From: Tolypothrix carrinoi HA7290-LM1
GTDB lineage: Bacteria > Cyanobacteriota > Cyanobacteriia > Cyanobacteriales > Nostocaceae
Direction: 5' to 3'
NCBI GenBank assembly: GCA_019358935.1
Contig: JAHHIK010000028.1
Location: 1 to 64,000, forward strand
DNA: 64,000 bases
Under the pieces are notes generated by a model. It did not search any database and was not told the DNA's origin. It saw nothing but the letters and a program-made list of their open reading frames with translations. Of the stretch, positions 2,637-49,660 are shown piece after piece; position 1 is the first letter of the stretch, and every line of letters begins with the position of its first letter. A program made the position numbers and the translations under genes.

Positions 2637-3035
2637 TTGTATCGAGTGACAATCGCATTGTATTGAGTGACAATCGCATTGTATCGGGTGACAATCGCAT
2701 TGTATCGAGTGACAATCGCATTGTATCGAGTGACAATCGCATTGTATCGGGTGACAATCGCATTGTATCGAGTGACAATCGCATTGTATCGAGTGACAAT
2801 CGCATTGTATCGGGTGACAATCGCATTGTATCGGGTGACAATCGCATTGTATCGAGTGACAATCGCATTGTATCGAGTGACAATCGCATTGTATTGGGAT
2901 GCGATCGCATTGTATCGAGTGACGATCGCATTGTATCGGGTGACAATCGCATTGTATCGAGTGACAATCGCATTGTATCGAGTGACAATCGCATTGTATT
3001 GGGATGCGATCGCATTGTATTGGGATGCGATCGCA
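2637..3035. repeat. Tandem array of 19 x 21 bp (TTGTATCGAGTGACAATCGCA and variants)
   Basis: 399 bp = 19 units with no spacers; units 13, 18 and 19 are the variant TTGTATTGGGATGCGATCGCA containing HIP1. Confidence 0.97.
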
Positions 3036-34500: not shown

Positions 34501-37103
34501 AAACGGTAGTAGAAAGTGATGATAATAATGATTTACTGAAGACAGAAAATTTACTTGTAGAGGAAAATCATGAATTTCTCCCAGAAACGGTAGTAGAAAG
34601 TGATGATAATAATGATTTACTGAAGACAGAAAATTTACTTGTAGAGGAAAATCATGAATTTCTCCCAGAAACCGATATTGAAGAAAGTACATTTGAAGCT
34701 GTCTTGGAAGTAGCAGACGATGAAGATTTGTTGGAAATACCAGAATCTTCAGATGCTTTTAATGAGCCAACTTCAGAAGTTGAGATAATCGAGAATGAAT
34801 CTGCTGCTTTAGAGTATATCAGAGCAGAAACTAAAGCTATAGAAGATGCAGATACGGCAAATTCTGCCTCTGTTTTAGATGAATTTGCCGACTTGGAAGC
34901 ACTGCTAGAAGAGGAAGTAACATCTACTCCTGATATCGAAATATCAGACATAGATTTTGCTGACTTGGAAGCGTTGCTGGGTGAGGAAAAAGCATCAACG
35001 GTAACACCGACTGTTAATAATGTCACAAGGTTAGCTGTATCCTCCGAACTACCAAATGAATTTGGTGATTTAGAGAAACTACTGAAAGAAGCAGATCAAA
35101 CGATATCGCATTCACCAACGGTAACATCAAGCACTAGCAAAAATCAACGTCAGCCGCGTCGCGGTGCGAGATTTGAAGAAACAATGCGCGTCCCGGTGAA
35201 GCATCTGGACGATATGAGTAACTTAGTTGGAGAGTTGGTAGTAAATCGCAACACCTTAGAAGAGGATCAGGGACGACAGCGACAATCCTTAGATAATTTG
35301 TTGCATCAGATACAACAGCTTTCGGATGTGGGAGCGAGAATGCAAGAATTATACGAGCGATCGCTTCTGGAAGCTTCTTTATTAGCCAGTCGCAAATATA
35401 AAGAATCTCTTCCCCTAGTTAGTGATTCAAATACAGACAGAGGATTTAGCGAACTAGAAATGGATCGCTTTACTCCCTTCCACACGCTTTCTCAAGAAAT
35501 GATTGAATTGATCGTGCGAGTGCGAGAGTCAGCCAGTGACATTGACTTTGTTACCGAAGAAACCGAACGGGTAGCGCGACAGTTTCGACAAGTAACTACT
35601 CAATTGCAAGAAGGACTGACAAAAGCGCGAATGGAACCTTTTTCTCAAGCTACCGATGGTTTGCAACGAGGAGTGCGCGACACCGCGATCAAGCATGGCA
35701 GACAAGTAGAACTTGTAATTGAAGGTGGAGACACTTTCATCGACAAGATGATTGTAGAGCATTTGAAGACTCCTTTAAATCATATGCTCAATAATGCGAT
35801 CGCTCACGGCATTGAAACCCCAGAAATCCGTCAACAGCAAGGTAAATCACCTGTGGGAACAATTAGCGTCCGTGCTTTCCACCAAGGAAACCAAACGATT
35901 ATTTCTGTTAAGGATGATGGTGCAGGTATCAATACAGATCAAGTGAAAGCAAAAGCGATCGCTAAAAATTTAATTAGCACCGAAAAAGCCAAAAGCATGT
36001 CTCCCATTGAGGTGTATGACTTGCTGTTTGAACCGAATTTCAGCACCAAAGACGAAGCTGATGAATTATCAGGTCGCGGTGTCGGTATGGACGTAGTTCG
36101 CACTTCGATCAGCGAAATTCGCGGCACAATCACTACTGATTCTACCATCGGCAAGGGAACTACTTTCACAATTCGTTTGCCGCTGACTTTGAGTATTTGT
36201 AAAGCTTTGTGCTGCGTCTCCGACAAAGCGAGAATTGCCTTCCCGATGGATGGTGTGGAAGATACTTTAGATATACCTGCGAAAAATATTCAGACAAATG
36301 CCGAGGGACAATCATTTATATCTTGGCGCGATACAATGTTACCATTCCGACCGCTGAAAGAACTTTTAACTTTCAATCGGTTACTCAGCCGAGGTAACGT
36401 TTACGGCGGAAATCGCGACGATGATATGATTTCTGTGATTGTCGTGCGATCGGCAAATACCTTGATTGCTCTGCAAATAGATCAGGTACTCAGCGAACAA
36501 GAAATAGTTATCAAGCAGTTTGAAAGACCGGCACCAAAACCGATTGGTGTAGCTGGTGCTACCGTCCTCGGTGATGGTCGAATTATGCCGATCGCTGATG
36601 TGCTAGAAATAATTGACATCTTCCAAGGACGCACGGTCAAACAAAGTAATCTCTGGGAACAAAAAAATACTTCCGCTACCGCAGAAACACCTGCTACGAA
36701 AATTGACCCGACAGTGTTGATTGTCGATGACTCAATTACAGTCCGCGAGTTGCTTTCTCTCACCTTTAACAAAGCCGGTTATCGCGTAGAACAAGCGCGT
36801 GATGGTCAGGAAGCTTGGGATAAACTGCGTTCCGGTCTCCCCTGCGATATCGTATTTTGCGACATCGAGATGCCCCGCTGCGATGGTCTGGAGTTGCTTT
36901 CTCGCATCCAGAAAGATTCTACCCTTAACCATTTACCGATCGCCATGCTTACTTCGCGTGGTGCAGATAAACACCGACAAATGGCAGTGCAACTAGGTGC
37001 TAGTGGCTACTTCACTAAACCTTATCTGGAAGAAGCTTTACTCGAAGCTGCTTCGCGGATGCTCAAAGGAGAAAAGCTGGTTAACAGTGCTAATAACGCT
37101 TAG
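31578..37103 (+). CDS. hmpE: CheA-like hybrid kinase (Hpt, acidic linker, HATPase, CheW, receiver)
   Basis: FRAAHSIKGGA, NAIAHGIE, DDGAG, SGRGVGMDVV and C-terminal receiver. Confidence 0.93.
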   Translation: MLPEQQQRILGYFIEEARDHLNTIEQGLLNLQSTLNDPEMINEVFRAAHSIKGGAAMLGLSSIQHTSHRLEDCFKILKEHPVQIDQKLESLFLGVSDTLKALLEHLTGPFGLTEDAANTLMSETEPVFEWLNEHLSMLVQQSSNQATSNTERTASNNKFQPQEISTLHVAPEIKSVGEFQTQVLQKLRDMLQLFKRMPTQETRQQLQDCCYELARFGESLNFSNWSGLCRDAGSAIANPKNSFLTLAKTVITEIKQALELATQNRDSEIAISPQLKALLSVLEIDLLEISDNFIAEPSTDKNLILASTISTNNLDIAAPTENNFADLELEPQDTINSLTELSTPLNFNSEDAISSLTELSTPLNFGSEDTISSLSELSTPLNFDSEDSITSLTELSASANQDQDNFADIFSSDRKLSQDDKLLNNKSIDLNGPEVGIAELNALADFFEGETPDLDETWQKVEILDDTSDNELSIDISNDTEDADNDFADLLSFEKEPSSNYQTNITATEDLTLLQLFDDNLPEQASLFPETAITNLELSDNSNCEEMPELATSSDDIALNNELPSDVVDDFLALTLNENELFSLGEVTQPEAENINATFTSAKTSSLNDLDSIEELSPEQDNNFEQVFPETANANLVEEIPLTNHLPEITQSQEESFSLDSLFAAEEETIPSTTKSESSDLFDFLNFPTAAEISQSEEDLNDFWSQEPEEELHQKFHLEVELDAVRALEASLFAAAASGDIFGSSEQASEENFDIEDIDISFLQSDLIFASDVDDDFFAQFTSTESGDLFSDRESPQDIHNLPQQHTTQLQPENLSDAMLPEAVEAQPEFTKSFEEETNLLDTAFDENNNDTLNIEDTPKIDTTESSLVAQDLLKREIAIDINAETSEPQLETQEVAPKVNNSFQAALNFTETPFYQDENLAESELNLINDLFSGENFLLEANQEFIPETVVESDNNDLLATENLLVSNQEFLPETVVESDDNNDLLKTENLLVEENHEFLPETVVESDDNNDLLKTENLLVEENHEFLPETDIEESTFEAVLEVADDEDLLEIPESSDAFNEPTSEVEIIENESAALEYIRAETKAIEDADTANSASVLDEFADLEALLEEEVTSTPDIEISDIDFADLEALLGEEKASTVTPTVNNVTRLAVSSELPNEFGDLEKLLKEADQTISHSPTVTSSTSKNQRQPRRGARFEETMRVPVKHLDDMSNLVGELVVNRNTLEEDQGRQRQSLDNLLHQIQQLSDVGARMQELYERSLLEASLLASRKYKESLPLVSDSNTDRGFSELEMDRFTPFHTLSQEMIELIVRVRESASDIDFVTEETERVARQFRQVTTQLQEGLTKARMEPFSQATDGLQRGVRDTAIKHGRQVELVIEGGDTFIDKMIVEHLKTPLNHMLNNAIAHGIETPEIRQQQGKSPVGTISVRAFHQGNQTIISVKDDGAGINTDQVKAKAIAKNLISTEKAKSMSPIEVYDLLFEPNFSTKDEADELSGRGVGMDVVRTSISEIRGTITTDSTIGKGTTFTIRLPLTLSICKALCCVSDKARIAFPMDGVEDTLDIPAKNIQTNAEGQSFISWRDTMLPFRPLKELLTFNRLLSRGNVYGGNRDDDMISVIVVRSANTLIALQIDQVLSEQEIVIKQFERPAPKPIGVAGATVLGDGRIMPIADVLEIIDIFQGRTVKQSNLWEQKNTSATAETPATKIDPTVLIVDDSITVRELLSLTFNKAGYRVEQARDGQEAWDKLRSGLPCDIVFCDIEMPRCDGLELLSRIQKDSTLNHLPIAMLTSRGADKHRQMAVQLGASGYFTKPYLEEALLEAASRMLKGEKLVNSANNA

Positions 37104-37299: not shown

Positions 37300-37878
37300 T
37301 TATCCCCAAATTCGTTGCAGATTGAGTACAAAACCAGGTAAAACATTTAAGGCGGAAATAGTTTGAGGAAATTTTAAAATTTCCACATCTTGTCCTGGAC
37401 GATAAATTTCTACTTCCTGTTTTTTTCGGTTGATCAACCAACCAAGACGACACCCATTTTTCATATATTCATCCATTTTGTCTTGAACTTTTTTCAAAGT
37501 GTCGGATGGTGACATTATTTCAATGACAAAATCAGGACATAGGGGAATAAATTTTTCTTTTTGCTCTTTAGTCAAAGCATCCCAACGAGATTTTTCTACC
37601 CAAGAAACATCTGGAGAACGGTCAGCCCCTGAAGGTAAAGTAAATCCAGTTGATGAATCAAAAACTTCGCCCAATTGATTTTGTTCATTCCATGATGCTA
37701 CTTGAAGAATTAAATTAACATTACTTCTCCCTGTTTCTCCTCCCGTAGGTGGCATTATAATCAATTCTCCTTGGGCATTGCGTTCTAATTTTAAATCGGG
37801 GTTTTCTTCACACAATTGATAAAACTGCTCTCTTGTCAGTTTAATTACAGAATTGAGGTTTAATGTAAGTGCTGTCAT
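37300..37878 (-). CDS. Uma2 (DUF820) family endonuclease-fold protein, copy A
   Basis: ERNAQGELIIMPPTGGETG, RSPDVSW, CPDFVIEI.S and LGWLIN motifs. Confidence 0.93.
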   Translation of the reverse strand: MTALTLNLNSVIKLTREQFYQLCEENPDLKLERNAQGELIIMPPTGGETGRSNVNLILQVASWNEQNQLGEVFDSSTGFTLPSGADRSPDVSWVEKSRWDALTKEQKEKFIPLCPDFVIEIMSPSDTLKKVQDKMDEYMKNGCRLGWLINRKKQEVEIYRPGQDVEILKFPQTISALNVLPGFVLNLQRIWG

Positions 37879-38080
37879 AACAACCTCTAATTAACTCATC
37901 TATTATCAAAAATAGCATCGGCGACTTCTAGTCGCGGCGTTGCGCGTACAAAGTCCGCTAGCATTTACTATGCAAGGGCGAAAAATACCTGACTTACCCA
38001 TCCAGCCTGAAGAGCGATCGCAACGGCTAGAAATTAATATGTGCCTCTCTACGAGACGCGTTGCGCGATCGCTTCGGACA

Positions 38081-38659
38081 TTATCCCCAAATTCGTTGCA
38101 GATTGAGTACAAAACCAGGTAGAATATTTTCCCCGGAAATAGTTTGAGGAAATTTTAAAACTTCCACATTTTGTCCTGGACGATAAATTTCTACTTCCTG
38201 TTTTTTTCTGTTTATCAACCAACCTAGACGACAACCATTTTCGATATACTCTTGCATCTTGTTCTGAGTTTTTTTCAAGCTGTCATTAGATGACATTATT
38301 TCAATGACAAAATCAGGACATAAGGGAATAAATTTTTCTTTTTGCTCTTTAGTCAAAGCATCCCAACGAGATTTTTCTACCCAAGAAACATCTGGAGAAC
38401 GGTCAGAACCTGAAGGTAAAGTAAATCCAGTTGATGAATCAAAAACTTCGCCCAATTGATTTTGGTCGTTCCAGAACCATATTTGAGCGTTAATAGTAGA
38501 ATTACTTCTCCCTGTTTCTCCTCCCGTAGGTGGCATTATAATTAATTCTCCTTGGGCATTGCGTTCTAATTTTAAATCGGGATTTTCTTCACACAATTGA
38601 TAAAACTGCTCTCTTGTCAGTTTAATTACAGAATTGAGGTTTAATGTAAGTGCTGTCAT
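38081..38659 (-). CDS. Uma2 (DUF820) family endonuclease-fold protein, copy B
   Basis: Near-identical tandem duplicate of copy A (offset 781 bp). Confidence 0.93.
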   Translation of the reverse strand: MTALTLNLNSVIKLTREQFYQLCEENPDLKLERNAQGELIIMPPTGGETGRSNSTINAQIWFWNDQNQLGEVFDSSTGFTLPSGSDRSPDVSWVEKSRWDALTKEQKEKFIPLCPDFVIEIMSSNDSLKKTQNKMQEYIENGCRLGWLINRKKQEVEIYRPGQNVEVLKFPQTISGENILPGFVLNLQRIWG

Positions 38660-39024
38660 ATCAACCTCTAATTAACTCATCTATTATCAAAAATAGCATC
38701 GGTGACTTCTAGTCGCGGCGTTGCGCGTACAAAGTCCGCATGACAAGGACTTAAGAAAAGTTGAAACCCGCGTAGTAGGCGGGTTTAGTCTGTGTAGCTG
38801 CGATTTCAATTGCCCAGTACTGCAAAGCCTCAGCCCCGACGATATACCGCGTCATCTGCTTGATTTCCTTGTTATTGATGATGTGGGCTTACGCACTGTC
38901 AATATTTGCGAAGATTTAGTCTTGTTCTATCTTAGAACTATGTCACGAAAAAATTAGCATTTACTATGACCAGCGAAAAACACCTGACTTACCCATCCAG
39001 TCCGAAAAGCGATCGCGTTGATAA

Positions 39025-39162
39025 CTACCGCAGTTCGTTTTTCCATACGCTTTTAGCAGAATGCAATCCACCAAGCTTGCTCTTGGTGACCTCGTTAATG
39101 ATACGGTAATACTCAATTGAAGACTCCCAACTCATTCCCCCGATTAGCCCAATTGTTTTCAC
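39025..39162 (-). pseudogene. Truncated aspartate/glutamate racemase-family gene (second integron cassette)
   Basis: GAGGAG RBS then GTG: MKTIGLIGGMSWESSIEYYRIINEVTKSKLGGLHSAKSV; similarity ends after about 39 codons at the POP-derived repeat. Confidence 0.85.
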
Positions 39163-39264
39163 GATGGCTCCTCAAATGACTAAGACGATTGCTTGCCACT
39201 TCACAGTTTAATTGAACTTCTCACAGGTGACTTTGAAGTACTGTCCTAACCCAGAATAGGAGCC

Positions 39265-39348
39265 GTATAACGACCAGGGTAAGCGGCGATGAAAGAATTA
39301 TAAACGAAGCGAGAAAACTTTGTTCGCCGCTCCAACTACTTGTTAGCT
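39265..39348 (-). other. Putative integron attC site (84 bp)
   Basis: Minus strand AGCTAAC...GAGCGGCGA...TCGCCGCTT...GTTATAC: TAAC/GTTA core sites plus inner palindromic arms, 41 nt after the MOSC stop. Confidence 0.75.
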
Positions 39349-39389
39349 TGCGATACTATACGACGATGCTGGTTCAGGATCAATTAGTG

Positions 39390-39938
39390 TCAGACCCGAT
39401 CAAGAGCTTGGTGTGGTTCCGGTGGTAGTTCGATTCGGATTGAGTTGCCAGGGCGTATCTCGCCGCCAACCATAACGATCCCCATGACCCCAGCCTTACG
39501 AATGAGTTTGCCGTGTTCGTCACGTCCCAACACTGCCGCCATCAGTCCCGACTGGAACTGATCTAACTGGGCGCAGGGATTTCTCAACCCCGTCAACTCG
39601 ACAACTGCCGTGTCCCCTAGATATAGCTGTGCGCCCGTCGGCAAACTCAACAGATCAATACCGCGTGTCGTAACATTCTCACCCATTTGCCCGGCTGACA
39701 CCTCAAAGCCAAAAGTTCGCAATTCATCATGCAGTTCAGCGTGAATTAAATGCACTTGGCGTAAATTCGGCTGCGTTGGATCAACCGCCACTCGCGATCG
39801 ATGCTTGACCGTCTTGCCCATGTGTGAATCACCTTCAACACCTAGCCCAGCTAGAAGTTGAATACTCTCCTGATTTAGTTTAGTAAATGTGTGTGTTGTA
39901 CTGCGGCTGACTGCTATCACTACACCACCCATCTCCAT
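39390..39938 (-). CDS. MOSC domain protein (first integron cassette)
   Basis: GLGVEGDSH, RQVHL, GENVTTRG, LRNPC.QL and G.V..GG.IRPG motifs; GC-richer than flanks by eye. Confidence 0.9.
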   Translation of the reverse strand: MEMGGVVIAVSRSTTHTFTKLNQESIQLLAGLGVEGDSHMGKTVKHRSRVAVDPTQPNLRQVHLIHAELHDELRTFGFEVSAGQMGENVTTRGIDLLSLPTGAQLYLGDTAVVELTGLRNPCAQLDQFQSGLMAAVLGRDEHGKLIRKAGVMGIVMVGGEIRPGNSIRIELPPEPHQALDRV

Positions 39939-40061
39939 CACCTCACTGTTTCTAAATCACAAATCCCATTCTAAATCTGACCTCTGCCAGTCGCTCTATC
40001 TTCACTGAACTTTCAACATCAACAAATAACCTTCAAAAGACTGCCACCACCCGTAAACGAA

Positions 40062-40285
40062 GCCGCATAACTATTTATTATACATAAAATTACCGTCTAA
40101 TTACTCAATTTGGGGTAGTTATACAGAATTTTTCCATCTAATATCCCTATTTGGACACTAGACGGAAATTGTCCGTATATTTACCCTAATTGAGTCTGTA
40201 TGTGGCATTCTTGCGTATATCCTCGGCTAATAGCCAGAATTTTTCTGGATGTTATCCAAATCAGGACATGAGACGGAAATTTCCT
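40062..40285 (-). promoter_or_regulatory. Putative attI / integron promoter region
   Basis: Core site GTTATGC on the minus strand at 40065-40071; repeated AGACGGAAAT boxes; lies between the intI remnant and the first cassette. Confidence 0.55.
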
Positions 40286-40297
40286 TGATATTTTTCT

Positions 40298-40414
40298 CTG
40301 GAAAAACGCCCAAAAAAGTTGTTGAAACAGGTTCAGGACGCAATTCGGCTCAAGCATTATTCTTACAATACAGAAAAAAGCTACATTGACGCGGATGTGC
40401 TCTCAACCCCTTAG
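40298..40414 (+). pseudogene. intI: Integron integrase N-terminal remnant (38 codons)
   Basis: CTG-EKRPKKLLKQVQDAIRLKHYSYNTEKSYID resembles the IntI N-terminus (LL.QV...IR.KHYS..TE.SY); catalytic domain absent; divergent from the cassettes. Confidence 0.8.
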
Positions 40415-40463
40415 CAAGGTTCTATCTTAGAACTATGTCAATAATGGATTAGCCTCTAACATT

Positions 40464-42530
40464 ATGCCTGCCGAAAAACACCTGACTTACCCATCCAGCC
40501 CTTATAGCGATCGCGTTGATGACTACCACGGTACCACAGTTACAGATCCTTACCGCTTCTTAGAAGACCCGGACTCAGAAGAAACCAAAGCTTGGGTTGA
40601 GGCACAAAATAAAGTTACCTTTGGCTACTTGAACGAAATTCCCGCAAGAGAAAAAATCAAGCAACGCCTCACCAAATTGTGGGATTATGAAAAATATAGT
40701 ATCCCCTTTCAAGAAGGCGAAAACTACTTTTATTTCAAAAATGACGGACTGCAAAACCAAAGCGTCCTCTATACCCTGAAAACTCTCGACGGTGAACCGA
40801 AAGTTTTACTCGACCCGAACAAACTTTCAGCAGATGGTACTGTTGCGCTTTCCGGTTTATCTATCAGTGAAAACGGTAAACTTTTAGCATACGGTTTATC
40901 CTCATCTGGTTCTGACTGGCAAGAATGGAAAGTCCGAGATGTGGAAACAACTGAAGATTTACCAGACCATTTAAAGTGGATTAAATTCTCTGGTGCATCG
41001 TGGACAAATGACAATCAAGGCTTTTTCTACAGCCGCTACGATGAACCAAATGAAAAAACCAAATTAGAAGATGTCAACTATTATCAAAAGCTTTATTACC
41101 ACAAATTGGGTACATCCCAATCAGAAGACACATTAATTTACCAACGTCCCGACCAAAAAGAATGGGGATTTGGTAAAGCTGTCACAGAAGATGGACATTA
41201 TTTAGTAATTTCCGTTTGGTCAGGAACTGACTCGAAAAATCTGTTTTTTTACAAAGATTTGACTAACCCAAATGCAGAAGTAGTCGAACTAATTAAGGAA
41301 TTTGAAGCCGATTATAGCTTTATTGATAATGATGATAGCGTCTTTTATTTTCGTACAGATTTAGATGCACCCCGCGCTAGAGTTATTGCCATTGATAGTA
41401 AAAATCCTGACAAATCAGCTTGGCAAGAAATAATTCCCCAAGCTGCGGAAACTTTAGAAAGTGTCGGCATCCTTAACAATCAATTTGTTGCTGATTATCT
41501 CAAAGATGCTCACGGCAAAGTCAAAATTTTTGACCTCAACGGCACTTTTGTCAGAGAGGTAGAATTACCCGGACTTGGTTCAGTCGGAGGCTTTAACGGC
41601 AAACGTCATGATACCGAAACTTTTTATAGCTTCACTAGCTTTACCACACCGCCAACTATTTATCGCTACGACATAGTAAGCGGAAAAAGTCAAGTTTTTC
41701 GACAGCCTAAGGTAGATTTTAATCCTGCTGATTATGAAACTAAACAAGTTTTCTATCGCAGCAAAGATAATACGCAAGTGCCGATGTTTATCACCTATAA
41801 AAAGGGGATTAAACTTGATGGAAATAATCCCACATATCTGTATGCTTATGGCGGTTTTAATATCTCTCTAACTCCGAGTTTTTCTGTCAGTAGCTTAGTA
41901 TGGCTAGAAATGGGTGGTGTCTATGCTGTGCCCAATTTACGCGGTGGTGGTGAATATGGGGAAGAATGGCATCAAGCGGGAATGAAGCTGAAAAAGCAGA
42001 ATGTTTTTGATGACTTTATTGCTGCTGCCGAGTGGTTGATTGGCAATGGGTATACCAAGAGTGATAAGTTGGCGATCGCTGGTGGTAGCAATGGCGGATT
42101 ATTAGTTGGTGCTTGCATGACTCAGCGTCCCGATTTGTTTGGTGCAGCTTTGCCAACAGTCGGGGTGATGGATATGTTGCGCTTTCATAAATTTACCATC
42201 GGCTGGGCGTGGATTTCTGAATATGGTTCGCCGGATAATCTAGAAGAGTTCAAAGCGCTTTATGCTTATTCCCCACTGCATAACCTCAAACCCGGTACAG
42301 CTTATCCAGCAACGATGATTACCACAGCCGATCATGACGATCGCGTTGTCCCTGCTCATAGTTTCAAATTTGCCGCTGCTTTGCAAGCCGCACACACAGG
42401 TGAGAATCCTGTATTAATTAGAATTGAGACGAAAGCGGGACATGGTGCAGGTAAACCTACAGCTAAAATTATCGAAGAATCCGCAGATAAGTGGGCTTTC
42501 TTGGTGCGTACCTTGGATATGAAAGTTTAG
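40464..42530 (+). CDS. Prolyl oligopeptidase (S9A)
   Basis: DPYRFLED, YGGFN, GGSNGGLL, DHDDRVVP and AGHGAGK motifs. Confidence 0.97.
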   Translation: MPAEKHLTYPSSPYSDRVDDYHGTTVTDPYRFLEDPDSEETKAWVEAQNKVTFGYLNEIPAREKIKQRLTKLWDYEKYSIPFQEGENYFYFKNDGLQNQSVLYTLKTLDGEPKVLLDPNKLSADGTVALSGLSISENGKLLAYGLSSSGSDWQEWKVRDVETTEDLPDHLKWIKFSGASWTNDNQGFFYSRYDEPNEKTKLEDVNYYQKLYYHKLGTSQSEDTLIYQRPDQKEWGFGKAVTEDGHYLVISVWSGTDSKNLFFYKDLTNPNAEVVELIKEFEADYSFIDNDDSVFYFRTDLDAPRARVIAIDSKNPDKSAWQEIIPQAAETLESVGILNNQFVADYLKDAHGKVKIFDLNGTFVREVELPGLGSVGGFNGKRHDTETFYSFTSFTTPPTIYRYDIVSGKSQVFRQPKVDFNPADYETKQVFYRSKDNTQVPMFITYKKGIKLDGNNPTYLYAYGGFNISLTPSFSVSSLVWLEMGGVYAVPNLRGGGEYGEEWHQAGMKLKKQNVFDDFIAAAEWLIGNGYTKSDKLAIAGGSNGGLLVGACMTQRPDLFGAALPTVGVMDMLRFHKFTIGWAWISEYGSPDNLEEFKALYAYSPLHNLKPGTAYPATMITTADHDDRVVPAHSFKFAAALQAAHTGENPVLIRIETKAGHGAGKPTAKIIEESADKWAFLVRTLDMKV

Positions 42531-42655
42531 CTTCGCGCAAAGCCAGTAGGGTGTGTTACCGCGAACGCGGTAACGCACCTAAAACGGTAACAGTTTATCT
42601 TTGCATGTTGCTACTAGTATTGATAAAACGCACCAATGATGATCGGGATTTGGAT

Positions 42656-43741
42656 ATGAAACTTGATTGCGAACCTTACTACAAAACAATATTTGGTGCT
42701 GCTTATTTGGGAAACAGCCTGGAATTAATGGCAGATATCAGTAGCGAAAGTATCGACCTAATTTGTACGTCTCCACCATTTGCACTGGTTCGTAAAAAAG
42801 AATACGGAAACGTTGATGCCGACGAATATGTAGAATGGTTTAAAGATTATGCGGCACAATTTCACCGTATTCTGAAACCAACAGGTTCACTGGTTATTGA
42901 TATTGGTGGCAGCTGGATTAAAGGAATGCCAGTTCGTTCTCTTTACCACTTTGAATTAGTTGTTGCTCTGTGCAAAGCTAAAGAAAAAGGCGGACTTGGA
43001 TTTTATCTAGCACAAGAATTGTATTGGTATAATCCAGCTAAACTCCCCACCCCGGCTGAATGGGTAACAGTTCGCAGGGAAAGAGTTAAAGATTCGGTAA
43101 ATACAATTTGGTGGTTGTCAAAAGAACCGCATCCTAAAGCCAACAATAAAAGGGTTTTAAAGCCTTATAGCGATGCAATGAAGAACCTGATCAAGAATGG
43201 GTATAAACCCAAAGTCAGACCATCTGGTCATGATATTTCCGATAAATTTGCAAACGATAGAGGAGGGGCTATTCCCCCAAATATTATTGATGGACGTTGC
43301 AGTGCAGACAATGAAGTTATAGGACAACCAGTTCTTTTACAAGAAGTTTTATTTGAAGATTTAGTTCAACCCGTAAATGTGATTTCCGCCTCAAATACTG
43401 CTTCTAACGATTATTATCAACGACGTTGCAAAGAAGAAGGTTTTAAACCACACCCGGCAAGATTTCCTCAAGCTTTACCTGAGTTTGTCATCAACCTTTG
43501 TACAGAACCAGGGGATATTGTTTTAGAACCTTTCGCCGGTTCTAACATGACAGGTCGGGTTGCAGAAAGTTTACAAAGACGCTGGTTAGCTTTTGAGATT
43601 GATGAAGACTACATCAAAAGCTCAAAACTAAGATTTGAAGAAAATGCTCCTTTGGTTGTTGAACCTCTAGCAGATTTACCACTAATAGCATCAGAAAATG
43701 CCGATCAAAACCACCAGGGAGTACAATTAGGACTGTTTTAA
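42656..43741 (+). CDS. Orphan beta-class N4-cytosine DNA methyltransferase, M.PvuII-like
   Basis: TSPPFALVRKKEYGN, YWYNPAKLPTPAEWV, RPSGHDI, HPARFP and EPFAGS motifs; likely ATG 42656. Confidence 0.88.
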   Translation: MKLDCEPYYKTIFGAAYLGNSLELMADISSESIDLICTSPPFALVRKKEYGNVDADEYVEWFKDYAAQFHRILKPTGSLVIDIGGSWIKGMPVRSLYHFELVVALCKAKEKGGLGFYLAQELYWYNPAKLPTPAEWVTVRRERVKDSVNTIWWLSKEPHPKANNKRVLKPYSDAMKNLIKNGYKPKVRPSGHDISDKFANDRGGAIPPNIIDGRCSADNEVIGQPVLLQEVLFEDLVQPVNVISASNTASNDYYQRRCKEEGFKPHPARFPQALPEFVINLCTEPGDIVLEPFAGSNMTGRVAESLQRRWLAFEIDEDYIKSSKLRFEENAPLVVEPLADLPLIASENADQNHQGVQLGLF

Positions 43742-49321: not shown

Positions 49322-49531
49322 AGCAAAATGGCATTTGACTTACTCAAAATGAACTTTTGCTTTCTCATTTTGGTGTTTTCCGCAAGCAAAATGGCATTTG
49401 ACTTACTCAAAATAAGCTTTTGCTTTCTCATTTTGGTGTTTTCCGCAAGCAAAATGGCATTTGACTTACTCATTTTGGTGTTTTCCGCAAGCAAAATGGC
49501 ATTTGACTTACTCATTTCAGTGTTTTCCGCA
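49322..49531. repeat. Composite array of ten 21-bp modules (A-B-C-A-B-C-A-C-A-C)
   Basis: A=AGCAAAATGGCATTTGACTTA, B=CTCAAAATGAACTTTTGCTTT, C=CTCATTTTGGTGTTTTCCGCA. Confidence 0.92.
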
Positions 49532-49660
49532 AGCAAAACGCGCTGGCTCCAATTTCGCGTCTCTACAATTAGGACTCATATTTGATTTTTGAAATATACG
49601 TAAAAGCCGCCTAGAATCATCTAGACGGCGTTTAATTGAGTCTAAAATTGGAAATGGCTA

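Follow-up and report, generated by a model that had tools for sequence, protein, structure and literature searches.

A probable integron remnant without a working integrase at a recombination hotspot next to the prolyl oligopeptidase gene of Tolypothrix carrinoi

The DNA upstream of the prolyl oligopeptidase (POP) gene of Tolypothrix carrinoi HA7290-LM1 is probably the remnant of a cyanobacterial integron, comprising an attI site, one intact MOSC cassette, a weakened attC site and stubs of a racemase gene and of the integrase gene (31 codons), which likely no longer recombines alone and was likely built into a hotspot at the POP 5′ end by short-homology recombination of the host, with no dedicated mobiliser. 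The window is the whole 64,000-bp stretch of contig JAHHIK010000028.1 (C28) that was analysed, and it belongs to a 7.96-Mb genome that is 99.65% complete in 184 contigs and that is, with 0.99 sites per kb, a HIP1-rich cyanobacterial one. The remnant is located between a gene ending at 37103, which from a reading of its sequence we take to be cheA-like, and POP (40464-42530). All of the parts named in the original prediction were found where it had placed them, and the integron architecture it had described was borne out (Table 1). A contig from another study (run X2) spans 39908-40620 with 2 differences, so the right side of the locus has independent support and is no assembly artefact. Elsewhere in the window, a gene reading like a DNA methyltransferase lies directly 3′ of POP (42491-43741), and tandem arrays were noted at 2637-3020 (21-bp unit, 18 copies) and in an intergenic gap at 49322-49538 (63/42-bp units).

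Table 1 Features of the integron remnant and its surroundings in the window
Feature	Position	Strand	Remarks
Two Uma2 genes around a third partial POP 5′ copy	37300..38659	-	POP copy 37959-38021, + strand, ends at HIP1
Stranded POP 5′ copy	38924..39029	+	type that starts POP functionally in congeners; cut ~12 nt after HIP1 (39009-39016)
Dispersed intergenic repeat fragment, left junction	39029..39047	+	27 genome matches at ≤3 mismatches
Cassette 2 remnant: leader and first 39 codons of an Asp/Glu racemase gene	39046..39270	-	codons at 39162-39046
attC, 84 bp	39265..39348	-	recombining bottom strand = + strand; covariance model from relatives
Cassette 1, 800 bp: leader, MOSC gene, attC	39271..40070	-	similarity to first cassette of L107
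MOSC-domain gene, intact, 180 aa	39390..39932	-	conserved ATG at 39932; GTG at 39941 would give 183 aa
attI simple site	40065..40083	-	inverted box 40083-40077, 5-bp spacer, core GTTATGC 40071-40065
attI-intI spacer with degenerate 23-bp palindromes	40084..40297	.	palindromes start at 40078, 40119, 40158, 40269; homologous to the spacers in relatives
intI N-terminal stub, 31 codons, CTG for ATG	40298..40390	+	homology to IntI of relatives
POP upstream DNA and POP 5′ copy, fused to the intI stub	40391..40527	+	the intact POP gene now starts with this copy

The peptide encoded by the integrase stub agrees in 24 of 30 residues with the N-terminal end of IntI from G034, a relative in which this protein is intact (E 3e-8), and it matches positions 12-38 of the NCBIfam integron integrase model (E 0.009, below the cut-off); the HMM check suggested for this segment also gave a match, to positions 1-24 of PF13495 (E 2e-4), though below the Pfam cut-off. 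The CTG at 40298 occupies the position of the ATG in relatives. The original prediction of a 38-codon IntI-like N-terminus with CTG in place of ATG was thus right as to the CTG and the IntI identity, but only 31 of the codons are IntI: the homology ends at 40390, and the final 7 codons of the frame, up to the stop at 40412-40414, are POP-upstream DNA. The catalytic domain of intact IntI is not present at the locus. Since the DNA beyond 40390 is POP-upstream, an N-to-C collapse of intI is ruled out, and the gene that had been called collapsed is instead truncated. The intI stub of G024 has the window sequence right up to the break, and its continuation past the break has about 11 nt in common with the POP-upstream region of G016; aligned with these relatives, intI of the window reads as cut short, with a microhomology join linking it to POP-upstream DNA. 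In the congener G009, the same stub-POP join recurs at the array's outer end, more decayed and with no attI or cassettes behind it. Additionally, POP of G016 and G024 (L037, L038) has a hydrophobic N-terminal extension of about 80 aa that was lost in the genus of the window, its remains being the POP-upstream DNA at 40391-40463. A genuine intI collapse, with the spacer joined straight to C-terminal intI codons, was seen in L094 near 1530.

The core site GTTATGC was confirmed on the minus strand, and its 15-mer core is identical to those of the intact integrons of G034, G026 and G013. The attI simple site adjoins the 5′ end of intI, the predicted crossover falls between 40071 and 40070, and homology to relatives breaks at the GTT position. 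The spacer retains four degenerate palindrome copies, with 15-18 of 22 matches, against the 5-6 copies of intact integrons; that they are IntI sites is a guess. A function as a genome-wide operator was considered and rejected, given 16 matches (7 of them a single repeated element) versus 7 in one shuffle. The strongest palindrome matches in the genome belong to the integron scraps on C43, C28 and C12, together with an unexplained one on C1 (27070-27092), a strong match of 23 bits at which no other integron part was recognised. A TATAAT at 40082-40077 falls inside the attI inverted box; it is conserved in attI and has no -35 partner, and a promoter scan was at chance level (2 sites vs 2.8 expected). 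Judged by its sequence, this motif is a candidate cassette promoter (Pc), a −10-like element from which MOSC may still be expressed.

As had been predicted, MOSC has remained intact, and its product matches PF03473 with 38.8 bits (cut-off 22.7; E 1e-9); no relative was found in the PDB by sequence. In E. coli, YiiM/YcbX are responsible for the Moco-dependent reduction of N-hydroxylated compounds. The gene has matches in 3 of 300 family genomes. A complete integron of Phormidesmis priestleyi (L107; attC 72 bits, IntI 458 bits) carries a MOSC cassette in first place, and cassette 1 of the window is 76% identical to it at the DNA level over 39327-40096, that is, over leader, gene and the start of attC. 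Among the 80 best GTDB loci, a clear attC was located directly downstream of MOSC in only two, L107 and L112, the latter having weak attCs on both sides of the gene; L104, L105 and L115 gave weaker or upstream matches, and the other 75 had no attC by the covariance model used here, so that outside these loci the MOSC gene is, by this model, mostly no cassette. The MOSC locus of G129 (L082) was left out as GC-rich and probably a contaminant contig. Codon differences between the window gene and five homologs were 65-74 synonymous and 24-33 non-synonymous, an excess that may date from before the arrival of the gene at this locus.

A covariance model trained on 17 attCs from relatives, with the site of the window left out, identified exactly the 84 bp that had been predicted as attC, with 31 bits (E 1.5e-5); it was the top of six matches in the window, the runner-up reaching 16.4 bits. 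In the 17 relatives, the hairpin was 91% paired, with 13 of 19 pairs changing on both sides and 0 of 500 shuffles as high, a figure that is favoured by the structure having been drawn from the same 17 sequences. The search for sister sites yielded eight further attCs in the genome, all stronger and on other contigs (nine attCs on nine contigs); a sequence-only attC HMM found these eight and missed the site of the window, which a hairpin-pattern finder also failed to pick up. Folding of the bottom strand, proposed as a check, gave the expected attC hairpin but a weakened one: next to the first extrahelical base, the L box has an A-C mismatch, the second extrahelical T is absent at the model position, and the R-box pairing probability is 0.28, compared with 0.72-0.98 at three sites of the G034 array and 0.79 in L107, while seven sister sites of the genome range from 0.002 to 0.82. 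Moreover, the start of the window cassette complements the R″ box of attC at only 4 of 7 bases, whereas the cassette start of L107 complements its R″ box. DNA matches to this attC subtype occurred in 10 of 300 family genomes, one of them within the G034 array. By these models, the attC of the window is genuine yet probably a poor recombination substrate.

The second cassette, as predicted, is cut after about 39 codons; the stub starts with GTG at 39162, runs to 39046 and shares 94% DNA identity with a full 234-aa gene in G360. Neither the full G360 gene (L184) nor the racemase homolog L185 has an attC, and the cassette status of the racemase therefore rests on its leader, which is common to a cassette leader in L186/G060, and on a boundary in isolate run X3. 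This run shares the repeat-racemase junction, which there follows a POP copy in a different order, and it departs from the window at about 39275 (different DNA from 39276), 5 nt past the predicted attC crossover. Most of the 27 matches to the dispersed repeat at the left junction share one downstream motif, and the same junction with POP occurs in G009. In L184 (G360, 1400-2270), the full racemase gene lies between direct repeats of about 25 bp that begin at a HIP1-like site, which makes it another short-repeat module.

The two POP 5′ repeats around the remnant (38924-39029 and 40419-40527) are 82.6% alike over 109 columns. The original prediction had them bracketing a block that may have moved as a unit; direct repeats do bracket it, and modules move between such repeats, but they are not specific to the integron, for they also flank Uma2 and DUF433-type modules. 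Extra truncated POP 5′ copies around Uma2 genes or modules presumably of DUF433 type were found at four of eight congener POP loci examined, and the Uma2 pair of the window (Table 1) is part of the same hotspot, outside the integron. Across the genus, the POP 5′ repeats read as a general hotspot that also brackets toxin-antitoxin modules. The first 30 nt of the right POP copy resemble G016 (93%), and this copy travels with the intI stub. Truncated POP copies, those of the window included, end at HIP1 in five of seven cases and at the dispersed repeat in two, although among kin the HIP1 breaks come down to only three different types of junction, and there is about one HIP1 site per kb. The same junctions are arranged in other orders in G009 and X3. 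None of the relatives was found to have an intact integron at the cheA-POP locus, and the junction pattern had 0 matches in metagenome contigs.

The following course of events, the order of which the present data do not fix, would account for the locus. IntI would have put the cassettes in at attI, as the architecture and the presence of the same cassette in an intact integron suggest. The intI gene was cut at codon 31 and joined to POP-upstream DNA, presumably through the shared word of about 11 nt, and the racemase cassette was cut at the dispersed repeat. Modules carrying a POP 5′ end would have been added and permuted at the hotspot by POP-anchored recombination, with POP restored and the older 5′ end left stranded, which is the pattern seen; the mechanism would be homology-facilitated illegitimate recombination, probably after transformation.

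An intact integrase elsewhere in the cell, as the original prediction had envisaged, was not found: the best match to TIGR02249 in the genome scored 54 bits against a cut-off of 265, and none of 10 congeners had an intI match at E ≤ 1e-40. Because the assembly is in 184 contigs, an intI could have gone unassembled. Integron scraps are present in the genome as attI at C28, C43 and C12 and as a second intI stub at C140. The relic on C43 (10459-13469 in G000) consists of attI, a cassette that is split by a recombinase/TnpB pair of IS607-like type (a label read from the ORFs), a gene for a 286-aa hydrolase-like protein and a strong attC, the R″ box of which complements the cassette start. A third relic, on C12 (51740-53262), has another attI subtype with four palindromes and the core GTTAGAC, a divergent gene pair and attC. 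On C140 (4434-4480), an intI N-terminal stub of 10 codons followed by a stop diverges from an AraC-like gene. In G009, a separate relic about 9 kb from POP (L098:8120-9496, C120) comprises an internal piece of intI, attI, a 271-aa cassette gene and attC.

In a survey of 300 family genomes with seven candidates scored per genome, 13 had an IntI above the cut-off, and in eight it was apparently intact, being almost of full length and free of stops. At the same time, the 401-bp segment of G034 covering attI, spacer and intI start had raw matches in 165 of the 300, so that an integrase-less scrap of this kind is common rather than unique, and the element is not rare. Among the matches listed, 118 of 150 begin at the attI end (counted by eye), and attC sites were found in 69 of 100 family genomes. 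Twenty orphan matches were hand-picked among the stronger ones, from 20 genomes without an IntI match. All 20 leave the reference at the crossover position, at GTT in 19 and ATT in one, and 12 have attC on the correct side and strand; their intI-side breaks are mostly different, and four of the 20 have one cassette in common and are hence not independent. As counted from these matches, orphan attI-led cassettes would far outnumber working integrons in the family (165 vs 8 of 300 genomes).

It is unlikely that the locus is still in use as a satellite platform, with an integrase from elsewhere in the cell, or one arriving only transiently, acting in trans on its attI and attC. Its attI core is intact, X3 differs at the attC crossover and yet shares the broken racemase, as if an exchange had postdated the racemase cut, and use of orphan arrays in this way has been proposed (PMC4889954). 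Such use would need incoming DNA, since no intact intI was detected in the genome or the 10 congeners and apparently intact ones occur in only 8 of 300 family genomes; furthermore, the attC has the L-box mismatch and low R-box pairing described above, the 36 attI-proximal bp match G034 at only 28 positions compared with 34-36 in 18 of the 20 sampled orphans, and the joint of a circular cassette was not found in the possible source run X1, for which contigs were searched.

Transport of the whole 1.5-kb block by a dedicated mobile unit, whether IMU- or MITE-like or site-specific for POP, is very improbable, even though direct repeats bracket the block and the POP copy in X3 is joined to its left end (40499 to 39002) in the manner of a circle junction. 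The repeats are ends of a host gene with a similarity of no more than 83%, a search for terminal inverted repeats at the ends of the block gave none, and the block is present in a single copy in the genome and whole in 0 of 60 relatives, its parts occurring separately in G009 and X3. The insertion of a solitary cassette at a genomic attG, the origin proposed for SALINs in bioRxiv 2022.09.11.507474, with flanks resembling attI and intI by chance, has almost nothing to recommend it here: six of the nine attC sites in the genome have no detected attI nearby, but at this locus the stub matches IntI as described and the spacer is homologous to those of intact platforms, and the route is refuted for this locus by that attI-intI homology. 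The most probable reading is still a decayed integron at a recombination hotspot.

Comparison with the literature places this decayed integron among known systems. Cyanobacterial integrons, CALINs and a cyanobacterial attC model have been recorded (PMC4889954; PMC8352920), contrary to the earlier impression that these integrons are little studied, and IntegronFinder tables may already hold many of the sites described here. Integrase inactivation is common (43-46%; PMC3108266) and selected owing to the cost of IntI (PMC3510236). Like CALINs, SALINs and intI pseudogenes (PMC4889954; bioRxiv 2022.09.11.507474; PMC3108266), the locus has an attC cassette without a working integrase; unlike those decayed integrons, it retains attI and the intI promoter spacer. 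The window has one clear attC, whereas a CALIN is defined by at least two clustered attCs without intI, and its attI and intI stub lie 0.7-1 kb from the attC, whereas a SALIN is a lone attC with neither an integrase nor a further att site in its vicinity; an automatic search would likely call it a SALIN. The stub lacks the C-terminal domain used in the pseudogene search of PMC4889954, in which 95% of CALINs are without a nearby intI pseudogene and attI is described as unknown for most integrons and not searchable. In a literature search covering few subscription papers and no supplements, neither a cyanobacterial attI nor orphan attI-led cassettes came up as the subject of a paper. Complete cyanobacterial integrons (L107; G034, G026, G013) share the layout, attI core, palindromic spacer and an attC of 84-88 bp with the window, which does not carry their 320-aa IntI.

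Defective integrons flanked by IMU or NFM2-MITE copies (PMC3184786) likewise lie between two repeats, but those repeats are identical and MITE-like, with terminal inverted repeats and 5-bp duplications, whereas the flanks here are diverged 5′ ends of a host gene. In T6SS immunity arrays (PMC5361080), as here, it is a conserved gene that gives incoming DNA its anchor, the stranded ends of genes pile up, and homology-facilitated illegitimate recombination is likewise only a proposal; the anchor in the window is, however, a housekeeping peptidase, the cargo consists of unrelated modules, and the breaks favour HIP1. Partial attI sites persist beside genes in delta-attI-type cassettes too (PMC12901181), although these lie within clinical mobile integron arrays, while the attI of the window stands at the head of an orphan unit in the chromosome. 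In the orphan loci L085:2987, L092:1609 and L096 (minus strand), additional attI-like sites close to the first attI recall such cassettes. Movement of integrons and cassettes by transformation is on record (PMC3410848; PMC12614218), and in Synechococcus HIP1 is an aid to transformation (bioRxiv 2024.09.10.611283).

Taken alone, the locus is what integrase loss ordinarily leaves behind, and the family-wide pattern is of more interest. Through the locus, a cyanobacterial attI becomes searchable, a site that lies outside the scope of standard tools, and a little-studied integron lineage gains an attI, a Pc candidate and a palindrome array that can be tested; the excess of orphans bears on the origin of CALINs and SALINs. 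Tentatively, integrons in this family might persist mainly as integrase-free units of attI plus cassettes, which would move from one chromosomal hotspot to another through transformation and recombination at short homologies, often HIP1, be expressed from a promoter within attI and be re-loaded by a rare passing integrase. If so, many "solitary cassettes" would have originated as pieces of a platform and not by attG insertion, and the palindromes would form a module for IntI autoregulation or an accessory-site module.
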